From: a virus
Lineage: Duplodnaviria > Heunggongvirae > Uroviricota > Caudoviricetes
DNA: 33,339 nt
Direction: 5' to 3' (one strand)
IMG/VR virus record: IMGVR_UViG_2671180294_000014
This document shows positions 1-26,786 of this stretch, one piece after another (the first letter of the stretch is position 1; the number at the start of each line of letters is the position of its first letter). A model generated the notes under the pieces. The model was not told the origin of the DNA. It did no database searches and saw nothing but the letters and a program-made list of their open reading frames with translations. A program made the position numbers and the translations under genes.

Positions 1-981
1 TTATAACGTCACTCCGCCTTTTAGTGGATTCAGAGCGACGGCATTTTGCAGATAGTCAGGCGCAAGGTGCGCATAGGCCATCGTCTGCTGAATGCTCGCA
101 TGTCCCAGAATCTGTTGCAGTGCGATTATATTGCCCCCATTCATCATGAAATGGCTTGCGAATGTATGCCGCAGGATGTGGGTTGCCTGATTGGGTGGTA
201 TATCAGGTTTCACTCTGCGTAAAATCCCGCAAAATTTCTCATAATCAACTTTGAATAATTTGGCGCTGGCCTCCTCTTTAACTTTTTTCTCCAGTTCCTC
301 AGAAATCGGCACGGTTCGCTTTTTACCGTTTTTGGTTTTCAGGAAGGTAACCCTGCAATTTGTAATCTGTGCTGGTTTTAGCGTGGCAACTTTCGTCCAT
401 CTTCCTCCAGTGCTCAGACATAAAAGCGCGACAAGTAAGTCATCACCAGCCAAAACATTTAACAGTTTTTCGATTTCTGCTTTTTCCAGGAACGTCATTT
501 CAGGGTTGGCCTCCGCCAGTGGCGGCAGTCCGTGAATTGGGTGTTGCCCGGAAAATTCATCCAATTGAATTAATTTTGTGAACATGCCGGATAATCTGTA
601 CATGTCACGGTTTATCGTTGCGGCACTGATACCATCACGTAGTCGCATGGAACGATAATCCATCAAAGCCCTTTTGCTCATCCTGCTCACTGGTATATCA
701 CCTATGCCGCTGATGGTTTTGAGTAGATGATTAAACTCTTTTGTTCCATGCTCGTGGTTTTGCCCGTGATATTTCCACCAGATGTCCAGCAACTCACTCA
801 AAGTCCGGCGGTCTGCTCGCTGGCCTCCCCATTCTTTCTGACTGGCATTGGCGATTGTGTATCGCTCAAATGCTAGTGCTTCAGCTTTTCTTTCGAATTT
901 CCTGCGGATGCGTTTTCCGTCGCGACCGCGAGGTCTAATGTCCACTTCATAGCGACCATCATCGAGCTTCTTAATTGCCAT
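1..981 (-). CDS. int: P2-family tyrosine integrase
   Basis: ORF 1..1011(-). Product resembles P2 Int as I recall it (N-term MAIKKLDDGRYEVDIRP; C-terminal HxLRHTFAS...Y catalytic region). Start set at ATG 979-981 by that homology; upstream alternative start at 1011. Stop codon is the first 3 nt of the window, so attL lies outside it. Confidence 0.9.
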   Translation of the reverse strand: MAIKKLDDGRYEVDIRPRGRDGKRIRRKFERKAEALAFERYTIANASQKEWGGQRADRRTLSELLDIWWKYHGQNHEHGTKEFNHLLKTISGIGDIPVSRMSKRALMDYRSMRLRDGISAATINRDMYRLSGMFTKLIQLDEFSGQHPIHGLPPLAEANPEMTFLEKAEIEKLLNVLAGDDLLVALLCLSTGGRWTKVATLKPAQITNCRVTFLKTKNGKKRTVPISEELEKKVKEEASAKLFKVDYEKFCGILRRVKPDIPPNQATHILRHTFASHFMMNGGNIIALQQILGHASIQQTMAYAHLAPDYLQNAVALNPLKGGVTL

Positions 982-1050
982 AAGAAAGCCCTCCGGCGCT
1001 GTATTCACCATCTTGGTAGCAAATGGTGAAAATGTAATCTTTATATAGAG

Positions 1051-3012: not shown

Positions 3013-3237
3013 ATGCCGGACAACATAGATTTTATTCAGGAACAACAGGCTGAATTACTGGAGCGCCAGATTAACGCGGCAAGGGTAAAACATTGCGGTG
3101 CTTCTGCGCTGGTTTGCGAAGAGTGTGACGCGCCAATTCCTGCTGCCCGTCGTGCGGCTTATCCGTCAGCCACGCGTTGTGTTTCCTGTCAGTCAGTCTT
3201 TGAAGCAAAAAACAAACATTACCGGAGAACGGCATGA
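3013..3237 (+). CDS. TraR/DksA-family C4 zinc-finger protein (P2 orf82 position)
   Basis: 74 aa with CxxC-N17-CxxC (CEECDAPIPAARRAAYPSATRCVSCQ). AAGGAG RBS 6 nt upstream of ATG 3013. Confidence 0.75.
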   Translation: MPDNIDFIQEQQAELLERQINAARVKHCGASALVCEECDAPIPAARRAAYPSATRCVSCQSVFEAKNKHYRRTA

Positions 3238-3509
3238 GTATTCGTATTGAAATTGGCGAACGTTATGTCGTTACCAGTGACAGCTTCCAGTTTATTCTCC
3301 ACGAGAAAAAGAGAGCGGAAAGCGGTAAAAACGCCGGTCAGGAATGGCTGGCGGTGGTTGGTTATTACCCGAAATTAAGCCAGCTCGTTTCCGGCCTGAT
3401 GCATCACGATATTCTGACCGGAAGCGCAAAGTCTTTTGCTGATTTAAACGCGCAGGTTGAGCAACTCAGCAAGCGTTGTTCAGAGGCTTTTGGCTCATAT
3501 GGCCGTTAA
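3234..3509 (+). CDS. hypothetical early protein (P2 orf83 position)
   Basis: 91-aa ORF; ATG overlaps the upstream stop; 3' end overlaps the start of A. Confidence 0.55.
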   Translation: MSIRIEIGERYVVTSDSFQFILHEKKRAESGKNAGQEWLAVVGYYPKLSQLVSGLMHHDILTGSAKSFADLNAQVEQLSKRCSEAFGSYGR

Positions 3510-5796
3510 AGCCTCCGGGCGTTTTGTCCCTCCGTCAGCATTTGCTGCAGGCACCGGTAAGGCGTTTACCGGTGCTTATGCATGGAACGCGCCACGCGAG
3601 GCTGTCGGGCGCGAAAGACCCCTTACACGTGACGAGATGCGTCAGGTGCAAGGTGTTTTATCCACGATTAACCGCCTGCCTTACTTTTTGCGCTCGCTGT
3701 TTACGTCACGCTATGACTACATCCGGCGCAATAAAAGCCCGGTGCACGGGTTTTATTTCCTCACATCCACTTTTCAGCGTCGTTTATGGCCGCGCATTGA
3801 GCGTGTGAATCAGCGCCATGAAATGAACACCGACGCGTCGATGCTGTTTCTGGCTGAGCGTGACCACTATGCGCGCCTGCCGGGAATGAATGACAAGGAG
3901 CTGAAAAAGTTTGCCGCCCGTATCTCATCGCAGCTTTTCATGATGTATGAGGAACTCAGCGATGCCTGGGTGGATGCGCATGGCGAAAAAGAATCGCTGT
4001 TTACGGATGAGGCGCAGGCTCACCTCTATGGTCATGTTGCTGGCGCTGCACGTGCTTTCAATATTTCCCCTCTCTACTGGAAAAAATACCGTAAAGGACA
4101 GATGACCACGAGGCAGGCATATTCTGCCATTGCCCGTCTGTTTAACGATGAGTGGTGGATTAGTCAGCTTAAAGGCCAGCGTATGCGCTGGCATGAGGCG
4201 TTACTGATTGCTGTCGGGGAGGTCAATAAAGACCGTTCTCCTTATGCCAGTAAACATGCCATTCGTGATGTGCGTGCACGCCGCCAGGCAAATCTGGAAT
4301 TTCTTAAATCGTGTGATCTCGAAAACAGGGAAACAGGCGAGCGCATCGACCTTATCAGTAAGGTGATGGGCAGTATTTCTAATCCTGAAATTCGCCGGAT
4401 GGAGCTGATGAACACCATTGCCGGTATTGAGCGTTACGCCGCCGCAGAAGGTGATGTGGGGATGTTTATCACGCTGACCGCGCCGTCAAAGTATCACCCG
4501 ACACGTCAGGTTGGAAAAGGCGAAAGTAAAACCGTCCAGCTAAATCACGGCTGGAACGATGAGGCATTTAATCCAAAGGATGCGCAGCGTTATCTCTGCC
4601 GTATCTGGAGCCTGATGCGCACGGCATTCAAGGATAATGATTTACAGGTCTACGGTTTGCGAGTCGTCGAGCCACACCACGACGGAACGCCGCACTGGCA
4701 TATGATGCTTTTTTGTAATCCACGCCAGCGTAACCAGATTATCGAAATCATGCGTCGCTACGCGCTCAAAGAGGATGGCGACGAAAGAGGAGCTGCGCGA
4801 AACCGTTTTCAGGCAAAACATCTTAATCGGGGCGGTGCTGCGGGGTATATCGCGAAATACATCTCAAAAAATATCGACGGCTATGCACTGGATGGGCAGC
4901 TCGATAACGATAGCGGCAGACCGCTGAAAGATACTGCCGCGGCTGTTACCGCATGGGCGTCAACGTGGCGCATTCCGCAATTTAAAACGGTTGGCCTGCC
5001 GACAATGGGGGCTTACCGTGAACTACGCAAATTGCCTCGCGGCGTCAGCATTGCTGATGAGTTTGACGAGCGCGTCGAGGCTGCACGCGCCGCCGCAGAC
5101 AGTGGTGATTTTGCGCTGTATATCAGCGCGCAGGGTGGGGCAAATGTCCCGCGCGATTGTCAGACTGTCAGGGTCGCCCGTAGTCCGTCGGATGAAGTTA
5201 ACGAGTACGAGGAAGAAGTCGAGAGAGTGGTCGGCATTTACGCGCCGCATCTCGGCGCGCGTCATATTCATATCACCAGAACGACGGACTGGCGCATTGT
5301 TCCGAAAGTGCCGGTCGTTGAGCCTTTGACTTTAAAAAGCGGCATCGCCGCGCCTCGGAGTCCTGTCAATAACTGTGGAAAGCTCACTGGTGGTGATACT
5401 TCGTTACCGGCTCCCACACCTTCTGAGCACGCCGCAGCAGTGCTTAATCTGGTAGATGACGGTGTTATCGAATGGAATGACCCGGAGGTTGTGAGGGCGC
5501 TCAGAGGTGCATTAAAACACGGACTGAGAAGACCAAACCGTCAGCAAAGAAACGGAAGCCCGTTAAAACCGCATGAAATAGCGCCATCGGCCAGACTGAC
5601 CCGGTCGGAACGAATGCAAATTACCCGTATCCGCGTTGACCTTGCTCAGAACGGTATCAGGCCGCAGCGATGGGAGCTTGAGGTGCTGGCGCGTGGGGCA
5701 ACCGTAAATTATGACGGGAAAAAATTCACTTACCCGCTCGCTGATGAGTGGTCGGGATTCTCAACAGTATTAGAGTCAAACTCAGTGAAGCGTTAA
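3499..5796 (+). CDS. A: replication initiation protein A (rolling-circle initiator)
   Basis: ORF 3457..5796; start set at ATG 3499 (MAVKASGRFVPP...), matching my recollection of P2 gpA over its whole length (765 aa here). Confidence 0.93.
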   Translation: MAVKASGRFVPPSAFAAGTGKAFTGAYAWNAPREAVGRERPLTRDEMRQVQGVLSTINRLPYFLRSLFTSRYDYIRRNKSPVHGFYFLTSTFQRRLWPRIERVNQRHEMNTDASMLFLAERDHYARLPGMNDKELKKFAARISSQLFMMYEELSDAWVDAHGEKESLFTDEAQAHLYGHVAGAARAFNISPLYWKKYRKGQMTTRQAYSAIARLFNDEWWISQLKGQRMRWHEALLIAVGEVNKDRSPYASKHAIRDVRARRQANLEFLKSCDLENRETGERIDLISKVMGSISNPEIRRMELMNTIAGIERYAAAEGDVGMFITLTAPSKYHPTRQVGKGESKTVQLNHGWNDEAFNPKDAQRYLCRIWSLMRTAFKDNDLQVYGLRVVEPHHDGTPHWHMMLFCNPRQRNQIIEIMRRYALKEDGDERGAARNRFQAKHLNRGGAAGYIAKYISKNIDGYALDGQLDNDSGRPLKDTAAAVTAWASTWRIPQFKTVGLPTMGAYRELRKLPRGVSIADEFDERVEAARAAADSGDFALYISAQGGANVPRDCQTVRVARSPSDEVNEYEEEVERVVGIYAPHLGARHIHITRTTDWRIVPKVPVVEPLTLKSGIAAPRSPVNNCGKLTGGDTSLPAPTPSEHAAAVLNLVDDGVIEWNDPEVVRALRGALKHGLRRPNRQQRNGSPLKPHEIAPSARLTRSERMQITRIRVDLAQNGIRPQRWELEVLARGATVNYDGKKFTYPLADEWSGFSTVLESNSVKR

Positions 5797-5882
5797 CTCA
5801 ATAAATATGAGTTTATAAGTTAGGCCTCGAGATTTTGTAGAAAGGGATGTATACTGAGTATCGTATAGATTTGGAGTGAGTG

Positions 5883-6905
5883 ATGACTGTAAAGGTGATA
5901 GACCTTTTTTGTGGTGCTGGCGGATTAACTCATGGTTTGCAGCTTGCGGGGCTTGATGTCGTTGCAGGCATTGACCTTGAGGGGGAATGTAGGTTTCCCT
6001 ATGAAAGAAACAATAAATCTAAGTTTATTGAGCAAGATATCGCTAAAGTAACAAAAGAGGAACTGCTGAGGCTTTATGGTGATGCGTCTGTAAAAGTATT
6101 GGCAGGATGCGCACCTTGCCAACCTTTTTCAAAATATACTCAAGGAAAAGATAAGGCTGATGATAAAAAATGGCCTCTTCTTTATGAGTTCGAACGTTTA
6201 ATTCGCGAAGTATCTCCAGAAATCGTAACAATGGAGAACGTTCCTGATGTAACTAAACATAAAGTTTATAATGATTTTTATAATTCATTGTTAAAGTTGG
6301 GCTATTATGTTTGGGCGTCTAAGATTGATTGTGTCGAATATGGAATCCCACAAAACCGTTCCCGTCATGTATTGTTGGCCTCAAAATTGGGGGCGATTGA
6401 GTTAGTAAAACGTGACGATGTTATTTTGAAAACAGTTAGAGATGCAATAGGAAATCTTCCTCCATTAGAAGATGGCCAAACAGATCCAAATGATATATTA
6501 CATAGAGCCAGTAAATTAAATCCGATTAATAAAAAAAGAATTATACACTCTGTTCCTGGTGGTACATGGAAGGACTGGCCGAAAGAGTTGGTTGCCGCTT
6601 GTCATATGAAATCCAGCGGTAAAGGGTATGCTAGTGTATATGGGCGCATGTCTTGGGATAAGCCAAGTCCAACAATTACAACTCTTTGTTATGGTTTCGG
6701 GAATGGGCGTTTTGGACATCCAGAACAGCATAGAGCGATTTCTCTTAGAGAGGCTGCTTTATTGCAAACTTTCCCGATGGATTATATTTTTGTAGAAGAC
6801 AAAAACAAGTTTGTTATAAGAAGTATTGGGAAAATGATAGGTAATGCTGTTCCTGTGGAACTAGGAAAAGCAATTGGGCAATCAATCAAGAACCATTTAG
6901 AATGA
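5883..6905 (+). CDS. DNA (cytosine-5)-methyltransferase, no recognisable cognate restriction endonuclease
   Basis: ORF 5880..6905; ATG 5883 with GGAG 6 nt upstream. Canonical C5-MTase motifs seen directly: I DLFCGAGG, IV PCQPFS (catalytic Cys), VI ENV, VIII QNRSRHV, X GNAVPV. AT-rich compared with the phage backbone. Confidence 0.9.
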   Translation: MTVKVIDLFCGAGGLTHGLQLAGLDVVAGIDLEGECRFPYERNNKSKFIEQDIAKVTKEELLRLYGDASVKVLAGCAPCQPFSKYTQGKDKADDKKWPLLYEFERLIREVSPEIVTMENVPDVTKHKVYNDFYNSLLKLGYYVWASKIDCVEYGIPQNRSRHVLLASKLGAIELVKRDDVILKTVRDAIGNLPPLEDGQTDPNDILHRASKLNPINKKRIIHSVPGGTWKDWPKELVAACHMKSSGKGYASVYGRMSWDKPSPTITTLCYGFGNGRFGHPEQHRAISLREAALLQTFPMDYIFVEDKNKFVIRSIGKMIGNAVPVELGKAIGQSIKNHLE

Positions 6906-6911
6906 TAAAAT

Positions 6912-6928
6912 GGCCTGCTTTACAGGCC
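6912..6928. terminator. bidirectional intrinsic terminator between convergent genes
   Basis: GGCCTG-cttta-CAGGCC hairpin flanked by an A-run on the left and a T-rich stretch on the right, between the MTase stop (6905) and the stop of the minus-strand gene (6935). Confidence 0.6.
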
Positions 6929-6934
6929 TTATAA

Positions 6935-7615
6935 CTATTGTTCTAAATATTCATTATTATTTATATAGTGCTCTATATTATTCACGATAGCATCAAGATA
7001 GGCGATTACTTCTAATGAAATATTCTCTAAGTCCTGATATGAAACATTTTTTCCAATCTCAGCAAATGATACATTGCCATGAGATAAATCATTACGATGT
7101 TGTTTAACAGTGGCTAATTTTTCACCATGTTTAGTGTGAGTGTAATCGGAATGTGTAGAAAAACCATATATTTTCGATTTTTCTTTGATTTCCTCTCTAT
7201 CAATATTTCCTGAGAATATTTTCTTTTTGTTGAACGTGCCATAAGATATACCGCAAGATATACCTTTGGTAAGGTGATTAACTAAACTTTCAACATTTAC
7301 AGATTCATTTTTTAATCTTTTTAATATTTCTGACCTGAGATTTTTCCTGAGTTTGTCAAATTCTACGTTTCTATCATAAATAGTCTCATGAATAAGGCAG
7401 ATAGCTTCTCTCATTGTTGATTCAATGAGGTTATATAACAGTATATATACTGCTCCCTTTAGAGTTTTTCGTGATTGAGCAGTAATGGAGAACTTATGTT
7501 CTTTATCATCAGCTGATATCAGTTCTGCACCGGCATACTCAATAAATTTCAAAAGATCCAAATAGGCCAAGATCTCTCCTGACCTTTCGTCAAAATCCTC
7601 ACGAAAACGATCCAT
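6935..7615 (-). CDS. hypothetical protein with HEPN-like Rx4H motif; downstream gene of the two-gene cargo operon
   Basis: 226-aa ORF. ATG at 7615 lies 1 nt after the upstream gene's TAA (TAAcATG); GAGGA RBS. C-terminal region has KQHRNDLSHGN, matching the HEPN Rx4-6H signature. Strongly AT-rich. Confidence 0.65.
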   Translation of the reverse strand: MDRFREDFDERSGEILAYLDLLKFIEYAGAELISADDKEHKFSITAQSRKTLKGAVYILLYNLIESTMREAICLIHETIYDRNVEFDKLRKNLRSEILKRLKNESVNVESLVNHLTKGISCGISYGTFNKKKIFSGNIDREEIKEKSKIYGFSTHSDYTHTKHGEKLATVKQHRNDLSHGNVSFAEIGKNVSYQDLENISLEVIAYLDAIVNNIEHYINNNEYLEQ

Positions 7616-7616
7616 G

Positions 7617-8759
7617 TTAATCCTCTAATAATTTATCCCGAACATATTCAATTCGTTCAATTACCTTCACGCGACTATTAGCTCCGTCGGAAGTGGTCAA
7701 TCGTTTGAATTCTTCTGAGCTTAGCCAATCTAAGTTCTTGGGAACAAGGTCAGGGACTTCACGTAATGCAAGTGCTGCGCCAACAGCGAGAGATTCGAAT
7801 CTAACTCGAGGTGTAGATTTTGCAGTAATAGTTTTCTTGAATCCTGCTGGGAAATAGTTTTCAACAAAAGATAGAACATTAGCAAACTCTTGTTTCATTG
7901 AGTTTTGTTTAGTTTCGTCTATATCTCGATTTTCTGACATATAGTCATTTAGAAAATCCCGTACGGAATGATCAAAGTTCTTGTACTTATCTACGTAGGC
8001 AAAGAATCTTAATGTAAATTCTAACCGTTCATCTCGTTTTTCTTTAGTCTGAGATAAAGGTGCTAATTCTTTAAATTTAGGTATTGTTGAGCATGGCTTA
8101 ATAACCTGTGTATATAAATTTGTTGAACCAAGTTCTGATCCTTTACGGACTTCCATATCTTTCAATATATCGCTGCCAGAGTTAATACGCTCAAAAAGAT
8201 CTCTACGGGTTTCTTCATTGCATTTAGAACTCAATTCTATAACGCGGACAGGAATTCTCATGAAACGACGTTGACGTGATAATGGTAAATCTTGGAATTT
8301 GAAACCATTAAGGACGTCTAAAGATTTCAGGTCTTGTAAAACTAATTCATTTTGGATAAAAGCGTGTATAGTCCTAACTCGTTGTGAGCCATCAACAATC
8401 TCAATTCGCCCATCTAAATCGGGATCTTCGGAGAGAACATCTGCTATAAATATATATGGTATAGGAAAACCCAAAATCAAAGACTCTATCAATTTTGATT
8501 GTCTTTTTTCACTCCAAACAAAATCCCTTTGATAATCAGGAACAAAGAGTTCGTTAGTATCATCCTCTAATCCGTTATGATACTTATTAACTAATAACTC
8601 AACGGTAAATTCTTTGGTCTCAAAATCCACATCCTTTTGCTCAGCACGAATTTGCTCTTCAGCGTTTTGCTTTATCACCTCTAGCTGAGCAAGCAACTCT
8701 GCTCTTTTCTTGGCATTATCTTCATTTTCTAGTTGAGATTTTAAATCAATAATGTCCAT
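7617..8759 (-). CDS. DUF262 (ParB/Srx-like, GmrS-type) domain protein; upstream gene of the two-gene cargo operon
   Basis: ORF 7617..8777 (TTG start); ATG at 8759 preferred (AAGGGAA 6 nt upstream). Shows DUF262 hallmark motifs: PDYQRDFVW and IEIVDGSQR (DGQQR-type). N-terminal coiled-coil-like segment. No HNH/DUF1524 motifs found in the C-terminal half. Confidence 0.7.
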   Translation of the reverse strand: MDIIDLKSQLENEDNAKKRAELLAQLEVIKQNAEEQIRAEQKDVDFETKEFTVELLVNKYHNGLEDDTNELFVPDYQRDFVWSEKRQSKLIESLILGFPIPYIFIADVLSEDPDLDGRIEIVDGSQRVRTIHAFIQNELVLQDLKSLDVLNGFKFQDLPLSRQRRFMRIPVRVIELSSKCNEETRRDLFERINSGSDILKDMEVRKGSELGSTNLYTQVIKPCSTIPKFKELAPLSQTKEKRDERLEFTLRFFAYVDKYKNFDHSVRDFLNDYMSENRDIDETKQNSMKQEFANVLSFVENYFPAGFKKTITAKSTPRVRFESLAVGAALALREVPDLVPKNLDWLSSEEFKRLTTSDGANSRVKVIERIEYVRDKLLED

Positions 8760-23124: not shown

Positions 23125-23652
23125 ATGCAGCATTTGATAAATATAACGGCAGGTAATCCAAAAACGGTTGAACAATATCAATTGACAAAGGACTTTGATG
23201 TTGTCTGGTTTTTTTCAGAAGATGGTAAGAACTGGTACGAAGAACAAAAGTATTTTGCTGATGACACGATAAAAATAGCGTACGACAAAGATAATATTAT
23301 CCGCTATGTGGAAAAGGATGTGACAGCTATCAGACCGGATGGATTAAGTGTTGTTGAAGTGCCGGATATTACTGCTAACCGACGGGCGGACATTTCAGGG
23401 AACTGGATGTTTAAGGACTGTACAGTGATTAAACGAATTTATACGGCAGAGGAATTGCAGCAGCAGGCAGAAAATCGGAAAGCCAGACTTCTTGCAGATG
23501 CTGAATCCGTGATTTTGCCGCTGGAGCGCGCTGTCAGGCTGAATATGGCAACAGATGAGGAGCGCAGTCGACTGGAGGCATGGGAACGCTACAGTGTTCT
23601 GGTCAGTCGTGTGGATCCTGCAAATCCTGAATGGCCGGAAATGCCGCAATAA
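23125..23652 (+). CDS. G: tail fibre assembly protein (chaperone)
   Basis: 175 aa directly after H; position and size match P2 gpG. Confidence 0.85.
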
Positions 23653-23766: not shown

Positions 23767-25185
23767 CTACATCGGGCTCTTATATGGGGAATGAGAGTTT
23801 TTGAAACGCGGTTCTTCATGCTTCGGACTGTAAATTCTTGCATGATTATCTATCACAACTTTACTTCCAAGAATATCTCGAGCTTCTCCTAACGACCACA
23901 CAGTAGAAAGATCATTAGTCAAATTTCGATAGAGAGCACGAAACCCCTTGGGTTTTTTAAGATCATATAAGAAATCAGGAACTTTAACTTTAAAATTAAA
24001 GGTCGGTAGTTTCGGAAGGGAATTAATAGCCGCAACAGTATTGTATACATGTACAAGCTTAGTTACAGGTACACCTTGTCTAGTCTTGAGCCCATACTTA
24101 GTTCGAATATAATCTGATTCTTTCGATACTTCAGTAAGCAATGCTCTTACTGACTTATTAGCTTGAGGCAATTCATTTTCATCAAACAAGCGCTTTATTT
24201 CTCGCATTTTCTCACGGGCCCTTACAAATTCGTTGTTGTCCCTTATGTTATAAGCAGCTTCAACAATACAACTTGGATCACCAGTTTCTTTTGCGAGCCA
24301 TGCCGAAAATAAAGGAAGCGAAGTTGCTGTTGCTACAGCTTTACCACCAGAATGAATATCAATGAGATCATGACTTAACGAAGTGGAAAAGTTTTCTACA
24401 ATATGTTTAGCATAGTCAAAACCATACTGACAGTTTTGGCTTAAATATGTCTGTTGATACGCCTGACGTAATGGATATAAAAAAGTATCTGCTTGAAGGT
24501 ACTTAGCTGTGAGAGAATAAAATACTGCCCGATTAGCCAGCCATACAAGCGAAGCCACGAATGCTTTGATTGCATCTGATGCTTCACCAGCAGATGTGCC
24601 ATCCCCCCATTTTGCTCCGGGAACTTTGTACCCCTTGCGAATAGGGTTGCCAAATCGATCGAGAAGTTCAACATCGCCATTTGTTCTATTACCAGACTCA
24701 GCAGCATCACGCAGTTCTGAAAAAATGGCAGCAGCAATGTTACCATATTTTTCAAACTCCTTACCTCCATCAGATAAGTTCTTCAGTGTTAGATGATAAA
24801 CACTTGAACTAATGTCCCATGTACATATGATATGTGTCTGAAGAAGTTCAATTAGTTTTTTAAAATCGTCATTAACAAATGTTCCACCACGAATTTTAGG
24901 TTTCAATGCATCAGATATTTTTTTTGCTTCACTTTCAATTTCATCCAACCCATATTGTGCTTTATCAAGAAATAATATCTCTCTGAAACTTGAAATCCTA
25001 CTCCCACGGTACTCTGGAATATAATCATCAACCGCGATAACGTGATCATAGAACAAAATAGACTGTATATAGTTCTCAAATGCTATTATGTCTGTATCTA
25101 CTGAGTCCTTCGATCTTGTTTTTACTTTCCCCTCGATTCTTTGGACTGCAGTTAGAGTTGAATTATCAATCAGTGCGTATGTCAT
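23767..25185 (-). CDS. hypothetical 472-aa protein, AT-rich cargo at the P2 Z/fun position
   Basis: Long clean ORF on the strand opposite to the flanking late genes. ATG at 25185 with AAGGA RBS. Markedly AT-rich. No Walker, HNH, PD-(D/E)xK or MTase motifs recognised; the only weak feature is a C-terminal RIYSPKH (Rx5H). Confidence 0.7.
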   Translation of the reverse strand: MTYALIDNSTLTAVQRIEGKVKTRSKDSVDTDIIAFENYIQSILFYDHVIAVDDYIPEYRGSRISSFREILFLDKAQYGLDEIESEAKKISDALKPKIRGGTFVNDDFKKLIELLQTHIICTWDISSSVYHLTLKNLSDGGKEFEKYGNIAAAIFSELRDAAESGNRTNGDVELLDRFGNPIRKGYKVPGAKWGDGTSAGEASDAIKAFVASLVWLANRAVFYSLTAKYLQADTFLYPLRQAYQQTYLSQNCQYGFDYAKHIVENFSTSLSHDLIDIHSGGKAVATATSLPLFSAWLAKETGDPSCIVEAAYNIRDNNEFVRAREKMREIKRLFDENELPQANKSVRALLTEVSKESDYIRTKYGLKTRQGVPVTKLVHVYNTVAAINSLPKLPTFNFKVKVPDFLYDLKKPKGFRALYRNLTNDLSTVWSLGEARDILGSKVVIDNHARIYSPKHEEPRFKNSHSPYKSPM

Positions 25186-25595: not shown

Positions 25596-26786
25596 ATGAG
25601 TGACTATCATCACGGCGTGCAGGTGCTGGAGATTAACGACGGCACCCGCGTCATTTCCACCGTATCCACTGCCATTGTCGGCATGGTCTGCACGGCCAGC
25701 GATGCGGATGCGGAAACCTTCCCCCTCAATAAACCGGTGCTGATTACCAATGTGCAGAGCGCAATTGCAAAGGCCGGTAAAAAAGGCACGCTGGCGGCAT
25801 CGTTGCAGGCCATCGCCGACCAGTCAAAACCGGTCACCGTTGTCGTGCGTGTGGAAGACGGCACCGGCGACGACGAGGAAACGAAACTCGCGCAGACCGT
25901 TTCCAATATCATCGGCACCACCGACGAAAACGGTCAGTACACCGGACTGAAAGCCCTGCTGGCGGCGGAGTCGGTAACCGGTGTTAAACCGCGTATTCTC
26001 GGCGTGCCGGGACTGGACACCAAAGAGGTGGCTGTTGCACTGGCATCAGTCTGTCAGAAGCTGCGCGCTTTCGGGTATATCAGCGCATGGGGCTGTAAGA
26101 CCGTTTCCGAGGTGAAAGCCTACCGTCAGAATTTCAGCCAGCGTGAGCTGATGGTCATCTGGCCGGATTTCCTCGCATGGGATACGGTCGCCAGTACCAC
26201 CGCCACCGCGTATGCCACCGCCCGTGCGCTGGGTCTGCGCGCTAAAATCGACCAGGAGCAGGGCTGGCATAAAACGCTGTCCAACGTCGGGGTGAACGGT
26301 GTTACCGGCATCAGCGCGTCCGTATTCTGGGATTTGCAGGAGTCCGGCACCGATGCTGACCTGCTTAACGAGTCAGGCGTCACAACGCTGATTCGCCGTG
26401 ACGGTTTCCGCTTCTGGGGTAACCGTACCTGCTCTGATGACCCGCTGTTCCTCTTTGAAAACTACACCCGCACCGCGCAGGTGCTGGCCGACACGATGGC
26501 TGAGGCGCACATGTGGGCGGTGGACAAGCCCATCACCGCAACGCTGATTCGCGACATCGTTGACGGCATCAATGCCAAATTCCGTGAGCTGAAAACAAAC
26601 GGCTATATCGTGGATGCGACCTGCTGGTTCAGCGAAGAATCCAACGATGCGGAAACCCTCAAGGCCGGAAAACTGTATATCGACTACGACTATACCCCGG
26701 TGCCTCCTCTTGAAAACCTGACCCTGCGCCAGCGTATTACCGATAAATACCTGGCAAATCTGGTCACCTCGGTTAACAGCAATTAA
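25596..26786 (+). CDS. FI: contractile tail sheath protein
   Basis: 396 aa (MSDYHHGVQVLEINDGTRVI...), matches recalled P2 gpFI. Confidence 0.93.
   Translation: MSDYHHGVQVLEINDGTRVISTVSTAIVGMVCTASDADAETFPLNKPVLITNVQSAIAKAGKKGTLAASLQAIADQSKPVTVVVRVEDGTGDDEETKLAQTVSNIIGTTDENGQYTGLKALLAAESVTGVKPRILGVPGLDTKEVAVALASVCQKLRAFGYISAWGCKTVSEVKAYRQNFSQRELMVIWPDFLAWDTVASTTATAYATARALGLRAKIDQEQGWHKTLSNVGVNGVTGISASVFWDLQESGTDADLLNESGVTTLIRRDGFRFWGNRTCSDDPLFLFENYTRTAQVLADTMAEAHMWAVDKPITATLIRDIVDGINAKFRELKTNGYIVDATCWFSEESNDAETLKAGKLYIDYDYTPVPPLENLTLRQRITDKYLANLVTSVNSN

Follow-up and report, generated by a model that had tools for sequence, protein, structure and literature searches.

A C5-cytosine methyltransferase gene in a P2-like prophage as the proposed modification component of a conserved DUF262/HEPN cassette

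The stretch of viral DNA analyzed here (IMG/VR record IMGVR_UViG_2671180294_000014; 33,339 nt; hereafter, the window) is a P2-like prophage. Between its replication gene A and its portal gene lies an island of three genes, ~3 kb in length, in which a C5-cytosine DNA methyltransferase (MTase) gene faces a two-gene operon encoding a DUF262 protein and a HEPN protein. An account made from the letters of the DNA (the sequence-only reading) had called this MTase solitary and had offered three alternatives for it: an orphan with an anti-restriction role, the self-marking arm of a noncanonical system, or independent cargo. Our comparisons bear on this choice, and in them the three genes recur as a mobile cassette, of which the MTase is the proposed modification component.

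The MTase gene (5883 to 6905, plus strand) spans 1023 nt and encodes 340 aa. Its open reading frame (ORF) is open from position 5880, the ATG at 5883 has a GGAG at 5873 to 5876 (6 nt ahead), and RefSeq records the same 1023-nt, 340-aa coding sequence in near-identical Escherichia coli loci, which together bear out the extent first read for the gene. The Pfam DNA_methylase profile (PF00145) matches residues 5 to 337 of the 341-aa GTG-start ORF (E 3.4e-58; 198 bits against a cut-off of 22), and the NCBIfam dcm profile (TIGR00675) scores 130 bits (cut-off, 100.65). Every C5-MTase motif named in the sequence-only reading can be located: FCGAGG at residues 9 to 14, PCQPFS at 78 to 83 (with the catalytic Cys79), ENV at 118 to 120, the QxRxR motif as QNRSR at 157 to 161, and GNAV at 320 to 323. 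Motifs I, IV, VI, VIII, and X are all intact and do not vary among 35 orthologues, and the order of the motifs, along with the profile matches, places the protein among the C5-MTases of the PF00145/Dcm superfamily. The gene is intact and dedicated, and a 100%-identical protein is encoded on 754 contigs.

Tail-to-tail with the MTase gene, across a gap of 29 bp, lies the DUF262-HEPN operon, as the profile matches and the gap confirm for an arrangement that had been read as adjacent and convergent. Its distal gene (6935 to 7615, minus strand) encodes a 226-aa HEPN_MAE_28990 protein (PF18737, E 5.8e-29, 102 bits against a cut-off of 26.8; PF18735, E 8e-09) with an Rx4H motif, RNDLSH at aa 174 to 179, that is near-invariant in homologues. 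Its AlphaFold model is all-helical (predicted local distance difference test score, 90.9); Foldseek with this model returned no significant match, and the HEPN assignment therefore rests on Pfam and the conserved Rx4H motif. PADLOC has no model, not even PD-T4-2_B, that matches this protein at E ≤ 10. By its family, it is predicted to be an RNase effector and is the sole predicted nuclease of the cassette. Its ATG falls 1 nt past the stop codon of the DUF262 gene, and the two genes are therefore probably translationally coupled.

The proximal gene of the operon (7617 to 8759, minus strand; ORF open to a TTG at 8777) encodes a 380-aa DUF262/GmrSD_N (ParB-like NTPase) protein (E 8.2e-26) with a C-terminal helical domain and with the motifs QRDFVW (77 to 82), DGSQR (123 to 127), and FERIN (189 to 193). 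Among PADLOC models, it matches NsnA, the Menshen sensor (E 1.7e-54, residues 17 to 380), and PD-T4-2_A (E 2.5e-35, near full length). Its closest structures are BrxU, SspE, and the DUF262 protein of DndBCDE-DndI (PDB 9jfl), all of which are longer (560 to 594 aa), and the helical DNA-binding "ParBDB" domain described for NsnA has its counterpart in the C-terminal half of the protein (PMC12065111). No nuclease domain was found in the DUF262 protein, and Pfam yielded no DUF1524 match in any of the three cassette proteins; the DUF262 protein is a predicted sensor of DNA or of its modification. As had been read, the island contains no recognizable restriction endonuclease partner: neither Pfam, PADLOC, nor structure comparison detected such a domain or fold. 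Scanned against Rfam for an RNA antitoxin, positions 5600 to 9300 gave nothing beyond a miRNA match below threshold.

The 29 bp separating the convergent stop codons contain a hairpin, GGCCTG-CTTTA-CAGGCC (6912 to 6928), and the 50-nt region around it folds at −16.3 kcal/mol (z = −4.96). A terminator scan scored the hairpin on just one strand, the minus strand, on which the stem is followed by a run of T. Of the bidirectional terminator proposed earlier, then, the shared hairpin and the minus-strand terminator stand and the plus-strand call is absent: the element is terminator-like for the DUF262-HEPN operon and plausible as a terminator for the MTase transcript.

The three genes are associated far beyond this prophage. 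Relatives of the HEPN protein number 448 in GTDB contigs (one genome per species), and among the best 80 loci the DUF262 gene is directly upstream of the HEPN gene in all 80, with an orthologous MTase gene directly adjacent in 35 (52 to 57% identity, phmmer E ~1e-115 to 1e-131; 86% and 3e-208 in one Tatumella P2-like locus). Of these 35, 32 are arranged tail-to-tail and three, in Pedobacter and two Pyrinomonadales, are co-directional MTase-DUF262-HEPN operons. On IMG/VR viral contigs, the MTase gene is present in 38 of 40 loci, and the other two loci end at a contig edge, such that all 38 evaluable copies are triads, including some whose HEPN protein is just 26 to 32% identical to that of the window. 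The association also holds from the other genes: all seven sampled MTase homologues (60 to 74% identity; from E. coli, Salmonella, P. aeruginosa, Pseudomonas sp., Shewanella, and Stenotrophomonas, among others) have a convergent HEPN_MAE_28990 neighbor, followed in six by a GmrSD_N gene and, in the seventh (a P. aeruginosa island), by a gene truncated at the end of the contig, to which Pfam assigns no family. Both of the sampled clusters of DUF262 homologues are likewise triads, situated in Salmonella P2 hotspots and, on an unrelated backbone, in the nin region of a Klebsiella lambdoid prophage.

Over all loci, 81 arrangements are convergent and seven are co-directional, with a median stop-to-stop gap of 4 bp and with some genes overlapping. 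Pairwise distances of the MTase and DUF262 proteins are strongly correlated (r = 0.965; Mantel p ≤ 0.0005), a value inflated by shared ancestry. Other E. coli strains have a second allele of the triad at this hotspot, its MTase being 71% identical to that of the window. In all, the sites of the cassette comprise P2 hotspots (E. coli and Salmonella), the Klebsiella lambdoid nin region, a Pseudomonas integrative island, and chromosomes of Gammaproteobacteria, Cyanobacteria, Bacteroidota, and Acidobacteriota; the DUF262-HEPN pair with a C5 MTase gene next to it recurs in many cyanobacterial loci, one Microcystis aeruginosa genome included. The cassette thus moves as one unit among P2 hotspots, a lambdoid prophage, integrative islands, and the chromosomes of four phyla. 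Given a HEPN_MAE_28990 partner in 38 of 38 evaluable viral contigs and beside seven of seven sampled MTase homologues, "solitary" no longer describes this gene, nor does it fit the definition of an orphan MTase as one without conserved partner genes across its homologues. Reciprocal linkage, co-inheritance, and joint movement instead favor the second of the three earlier alternatives, the self-marking arm of a noncanonical system, and disfavor both the orphan anti-restriction MTase and the independent cargo.

Several individual triads have settings of their own. In Klebsiella pneumoniae (L090 to L093), the cassette lies at positions 5001 to 7886 of the locus in a lambdoid prophage, with a DUF262 protein ~85% identical to that of the window, O/P-like or DnaA/IstB-like replication genes on one side, and RusA, YbcO, and antiterminator genes on the other; here the MTase gene is co-directional with the early genes, and in L092 the HEPN protein is shortened to 160 aa. 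In Salmonella (L096, 6933 to 7973), an insertion sequence with an rve-family transposase sits precisely in the gap that separates the HEPN gene from the MTase gene, in a P2-hotspot triad that is intact apart from this. The triad of Shewanella frigidimarina (L139, 488 to 3567) directly adjoins, on one side, a classical Type II system that comprises an MvaI/BcnI-family endonuclease, a C5 MTase of 556 aa, and a helix-turn-helix controller protein and, on the other, an AAA_21/AAA_15 ATPase gene, the whole constituting a small defense island.

Within the MTase itself, conservation is distributed in an unusual way. The target recognition domain (TRD; aa 191 to 285) is the most conserved region across the four phyla, with a mean top-residue frequency of 0.81 (versus 0.72 and 0.75 in the catalytic parts) and 33 of its 95 positions invariant. 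Ordinary restriction-modification (R-M) families have the reverse pattern, in that the TRD is not their most conserved part. This suggests a recognition sequence that is locked to a partner. The target itself could not be read from characterized enzymes: M.HaeIII and M.HhaI align over the catalytic motifs only, E. coli Dcm aligns over residues 2 to 168 only, and a fragment of the TRD matches only DNMT1/MET1, around the motif-IX-proximal segment. These alignments give no specificity, and this line was dropped; among the source names in the protein database, none is REBASE-style.

We infer that the MTase is active in vivo, in part from the presence of Vsr genes in related cassettes. Vsr mismatch-repair genes are the usual companions of active 5-methylcytosine (m5C) MTases, and, as expected for such an enzyme, they occur inside three independent triads: the P. 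aeruginosa island (L088/L089, 6028 to 6483), a viral contig (L125, 6582 to 7160), and a member of the Pyrinomonadales (L074, 8650 to 9069). In two of the three, the Vsr gene separates the HEPN gene from the MTase gene; the cassette of the window has no Vsr gene.

In the window, the order of the prophage begins with an integrase gene (1 to 1011, minus strand), followed by the repressor and Cox genes and then by the P2 replication gene A (3457 to 5796, plus strand; Phage_GPA, E 2e-123; annotated "replication endonuclease" by RefSeq in near-identical loci), which forms the left border of the site known as hotspot 1. Its right border is the P2 portal gene Q (9131 to 10165, minus strand; Phage_portal, E 3.3e-14; so annotated by RefSeq in homologous loci), beyond which follow the terminase gene and then the head, tail-fiber, and sheath genes. 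GC content drops to ~0.36 just past gene A and is 0.34 to 0.38 in the island, versus ~0.53 to 0.55 outside. The site between gene A and the portal gene is a known defense hotspot, which P2 fills with old and tin and its relatives with many other systems (PMC9519451, PMC9122126), and the island has the form of hotspot 1 cargo, a variable low-GC insert flanked by Phage_GPA and Phage_portal.

The right edge of the cassette falls within the upstream region of the DUF262-HEPN operon (8760 to 8830, minus strand), with homology to ordinary P2-like prophages resuming at ~8820 to 8831. A megablast search with positions 5797 to 9130 matched 2180 records, of which nine covered at least 80% of the query; the listed matches H10 to H30 begin at query positions 3024 to 3040 (window ~8820 to 8836). 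The whole insert is present in nine of 5426 complete E. coli genomes, always with the same three genes, and the right flank is present in 2175; one of the E. coli copies is 88.9% identical and is sited in a different P2 variant. Against phage records, megablast found the cassette in no deposited phage genome.

The region upstream of the MTase gene (5797 to 5882, plus strand) holds, in addition to the GGAG ribosome-binding site, a weak sigma-70-like site, TCGAGA-17-TATACT (5827 to 5855), found in a promoter scan in which the number of promoter-like sites in the region was not above shuffled expectation, i.e., at background level. The MTase gene is co-directional with gene A in the window, as it is in all 36 P2-like loci (in 35 of which it is on the gene A side, although these insertions are not independent), and the terminator scan called no terminator between the two genes in the window. 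Because the MTase gene is downstream of, and co-directional with, gene A, with no terminator called between them, read-through from the early operon could raise MTase levels during replication and keep the prophage DNA marked.

The combination of genes has a precedent in computation. Operons of a MAE_28990 HEPN, ParB/DUF262, and a DNA methylase were noted in 2013 (Anantharaman et al., PMC3710099, Table 1), and the cassette has the same three-gene association: its HEPN protein carries the Rx4H motif and matches HEPN_MAE_28990, the Pfam family built on that clade, and the DUF262 and C5 MTase genes are adjacent. That report was a one-line note with a generic PrrC-type reading, in which the ParB protein was called a nuclease, and it contained no quantification, experiment, or link to prophage hotspots. 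PADLOC v2 does not represent the triad as a system, and the triad, although known computationally since 2013, appears to be experimentally uncharacterized.

Compared with characterized systems, the cassette is only partly PD-T4-2-like. PD-T4-2 is a two-gene DUF262 and HEPN operon validated as an anti-T4 defense in E. coli (Vassallo et al. 2022, PMC9519451), and, as noted above, its PD-T4-2_A model matches the DUF262 protein of the window, whose HEPN gene also follows at a 1-nt gap. PD-T4-2, however, has no MTase, and its ORFs span 1540 bp (versus 1843 bp for those of the window; PMC9519451, Table S2); moreover, the window HEPN protein goes unmatched in PADLOC even at E = 10, and the window DUF262 protein scores better against NsnA. 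With Menshen (NsnABC), the cassette shares an NsnA-like protein, with its ParB-DUF262 domain and C-terminal helical domain of DNA-binding type, but it has neither the NsnB ABC-ATPase gene nor the NsnC inPIN-nuclease gene, the effector being a HEPN protein. Menshen loci are sometimes located beside lone methylases, and their describers ask whether the DUF262 protein then targets unmodified DNA (PMC12065111). The mark of SspABCD-SspE and DndBCDE-DndI is a backbone phosphorothioate made by a multigene pathway and their effector is a fused DUF1524 HNH nickase/nuclease, whereas the cassette has a single m5C MTase and a separate, predicted HEPN RNase.

GmrSD and BrxU have the same DUF262 NTPase domain with its DGxQR motif, but they carry DUF1524, attack DNA with modified cytosine, and have no cognate MTase, whereas the cassette is without DUF1524 and its m5C MTase is co-inherited. 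It resembles a classical Type II R-M system in that a single C5 MTase gene lies tail-to-tail with its partners in a unit that is mobile among defense hotspots and islands; it differs in that no restriction endonuclease fold was detected in it, its sole predicted nuclease being an RNase, and in that its TRD is conserved across phyla rather than diversified. The cassette is, in sum, a methylase-coupled DUF262/HEPN system that falls outside the definitions of Type II R-M, GmrSD/BrxU, and Menshen.

On the comparative evidence, the MTase is very probably a functional part of this system, the three genes constituting one unit. By analogy, the system is probably an anti-phage defense, as suggested by its location in a hotspot, its relative PD-T4-2, and the defense roles of the DUF262 and HEPN families. 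The fuller reading, in which a conserved defense cassette of three genes, with the MTase gene serving for modification, is borne as lysogenic-conversion cargo in P2 hotspot 1, has in our estimation about an even chance of being correct, and that methylation protects self from the sensor is slightly less probable than that. In such a system, the MTase would methylate the DNA of host and prophage at a single, unvarying short sequence to give m5C, and the conservation of the TRD fits a target locked to a partner. The DUF262 protein, with its BrxU/SspE-type sensor module and without a nuclease, would survey DNA and tell marked self from unmarked incoming DNA; its NTP-dependent switching would then release or activate the translationally coupled HEPN protein, which would cleave RNA and stop the infection, probably via abortive infection. 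The outcome would follow R-M logic, with an RNase-coupled sensor as the restriction arm in place of a DNA endonuclease. As precedents for pairing DUF262 with a modification, SspE and the 9jfl DUF262 protein come from systems that work with host DNA modification (PMC12707154). We advance the most specific version, an R-M system without DNA cutting in which DUF262 signals unmarked DNA to HEPN and abortive infection is keyed to an epigenetic mark, a scheme conserved between E. coli prophages and cyanobacteria, only tentatively.

Several observations weigh against this proposal. Characterized stand-alone DUF262 enzymes (GmrSD and BrxU) attack modified, not unmodified, DNA, i.e., with the opposite polarity. 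The linkage counts derive from only the best 80 of the 448 genomic relatives, and the loci are phylogenetically related, so that both the counts and the Mantel test overstate independence. In 45 of the 80 species loci there is no adjacent MTase gene; these loci are mostly cyanobacterial, have housekeeping flanks (acnB, clpB, secA, and chlH), and in ~33 cases have DUF262 and HEPN genes that both look intact. In Dolichospermum (L016, 8722 to 8979), a remnant of an MTase gene (residues 245 to 330, 73% identical to the cyanobacterial orthologue) remains beside an apparently intact pair, as though loss of the MTase had been caught in progress. The pair can thus be retained with no MTase gene next to it, unless one encoded elsewhere in the genome takes its place. 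PD-T4-2 functions in E. coli K-12 with no dedicated MTase (PMC9519451), and a search of the available literature found no experimental work on the triad. The link to the MTase, as the MTase-less cyanobacterial pairs show, is not universal. The DUF262 gene is, however, truncated or interrupted in 11 of the MTase-less loci, whereas no such defect was seen in the 34 loci that have both an MTase and full-length genes (a 35th is cut by a contig end).

The MTase-less pairs occupy fixed chromosomal positions. In Nostocales they are next to acnB (L022, L032, L054, and similar loci), and in Microcoleus (L058, L065, L069, L073, L075, L081, and L082) they are next to clpB. The Microcoleus DUF262 genes encode only the first ~190 residues (the NTPase domain, with no C-terminal domain) and are followed by an intact HEPN gene, whereas in L079 the DUF262 gene is split by an insertion of ~2 kb. 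A recurrent gene of ~890 aa upstream of such pairs was considered as a possible fused methylase and was rejected, as it encodes aconitase B or ClpB and belongs to the housekeeping flank. Five residues in the C-terminal domain of DUF262 (255, 317, 320, 323, and 361) separate MTase-linked from MTase-less proteins, but we give them no weight, since they are confounded with phylogeny.

Of the other explanations, one is a layered defense of the PrrC type (Anantharaman et al. 2013), in which the MTase and the DUF262 protein would form the R-M pair, DUF262 nicking or cutting unmethylated DNA, and the HEPN protein would be a second-line suicide effector that is kept inactive by the R-M proteins and freed when a phage inhibits them. 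The linkage of the three genes applies equally to this arrangement, and the coupled translation of DUF262 and HEPN is in keeping with it, but it requires DUF262 to be the DNA nuclease, whereas GmrSD, BrxU, and SspE use DUF262 as their NTPase/sensor domain and DUF1524 as their nuclease (PMC10952713, PMC12065111); we regard it as unlikely.

Also unlikely, in our view, is a Type IV-like arrangement, with the MTase in a licensing or accessory role, in which DUF262 would sense modified phage DNA (e.g., hydroxymethylcytosine [hmC] or glucosyl-hmC) or another infection cue, as do GmrSD, BrxU, and Dazbog, and in which m5C, rather than shielding self, would tune or stimulate the sensor on host DNA (cf. 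phosphorothioate for SspE) or would confer an unrelated, co-selected benefit. BrxU and SspE are indeed the closest structures, intact MTase-less pairs exist in cyanobacteria, and the DUF262 protein of Dazbog is thought to sense methylated DNA (PMC10952713). PD-T4-2, moreover, was selected on T4 and needs no MTase, and protection by the ten systems selected on T4 generally extended to T2 and T6 (PMC9519451). But a sensor of modified cytosine beside an m5C writer risks attacking self. The sequence-only reading had voiced this worry about a self-conflicting pair, and it is a legitimate one, given that BrxU, among the closest structural relatives of the DUF262 protein, cuts m5C DNA; the conserved linkage implies that the sensor tolerates or requires its cognate mark. 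Left unexplained by the Type IV-like alternative are the status of the TRD as the most conserved part of the MTase, the presence of the MTase in 38 of 38 evaluable mobile-element copies, and the restriction of DUF262 truncations to loci where the MTase is missing. The weakest alternative, that an orphan prophage MTase (anti-restriction or epigenetic) merely shares the hotspot with an unrelated DUF262/HEPN pair, can appeal to the commonness of orphan MTases in phages, to an MTase gene that runs with the early operon and on the strand opposite the pair, and to those pairs that have no MTase, but it is very improbable, being largely refuted by comparative data in which linkage is reciprocal across phyla and unrelated mobile backbones (nonphage chromosomal sites included), seven loci are co-directional MTase-DUF262-HEPN arrangements, stop codons are tightly packed or overlapping, and MTase and DUF262 distances co-vary.

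If the proposed self-marking cassette functions as outlined, it would join epigenetic self/nonself marking (R-M) with RNase-mediated abortive infection (HEPN), which are usually treated apart, and would demonstrate that a resident cytosine methylase can be coupled to a sensor of the DUF262/ParB type, which is known for detecting modified DNA. This m5C methylase clade is present on hundreds of enterobacterial contigs, where its activity would alter host methylomes as well as plasmid and phage transfer, and MTases of the clade should not be annotated as orphans. With three genes, the cassette is compact, widespread, and cloneable.

Elsewhere in these prophages, gene content varies around the cassette and at a second site. 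The P2 variant of E. coli GN04592 (L001, 1950 to 2957 and 5245 to 5909) that carries the 88.9%-identical cassette encodes a PAPS-reductase-family protein upstream of gene A and, between gene A and the MTase gene, DUF3850/ASCH and hypothetical genes; the prophage of the window is without all these extra genes. In the window, a 472-aa ORF (23767 to 25185, minus strand) lies in a second low-GC island (GC ~0.38 to 0.43) between a tail-fiber assembly gene (23125 to 23652) and the tail sheath gene (25596 to 26786), which is the P2 Z/fun position, or "hotspot 2." It has no match in Pfam or PADLOC but matches PHROG 13435 (function unknown) end to end (E 9.6e-294) and is a candidate for single-gene defense cargo of unassigned type. 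Between the cassette and the portal gene, the noncoding segment from 8820 to 9130 is ~88 to 95% identical in 2175 of the 5426 E. coli genomes and in P2-like phage records, and contains GC-rich hairpins at 8926 to 8945 and 9110 to 9125. Several P2-like phage records start or stop within this segment, which suggests that it holds the cos region.

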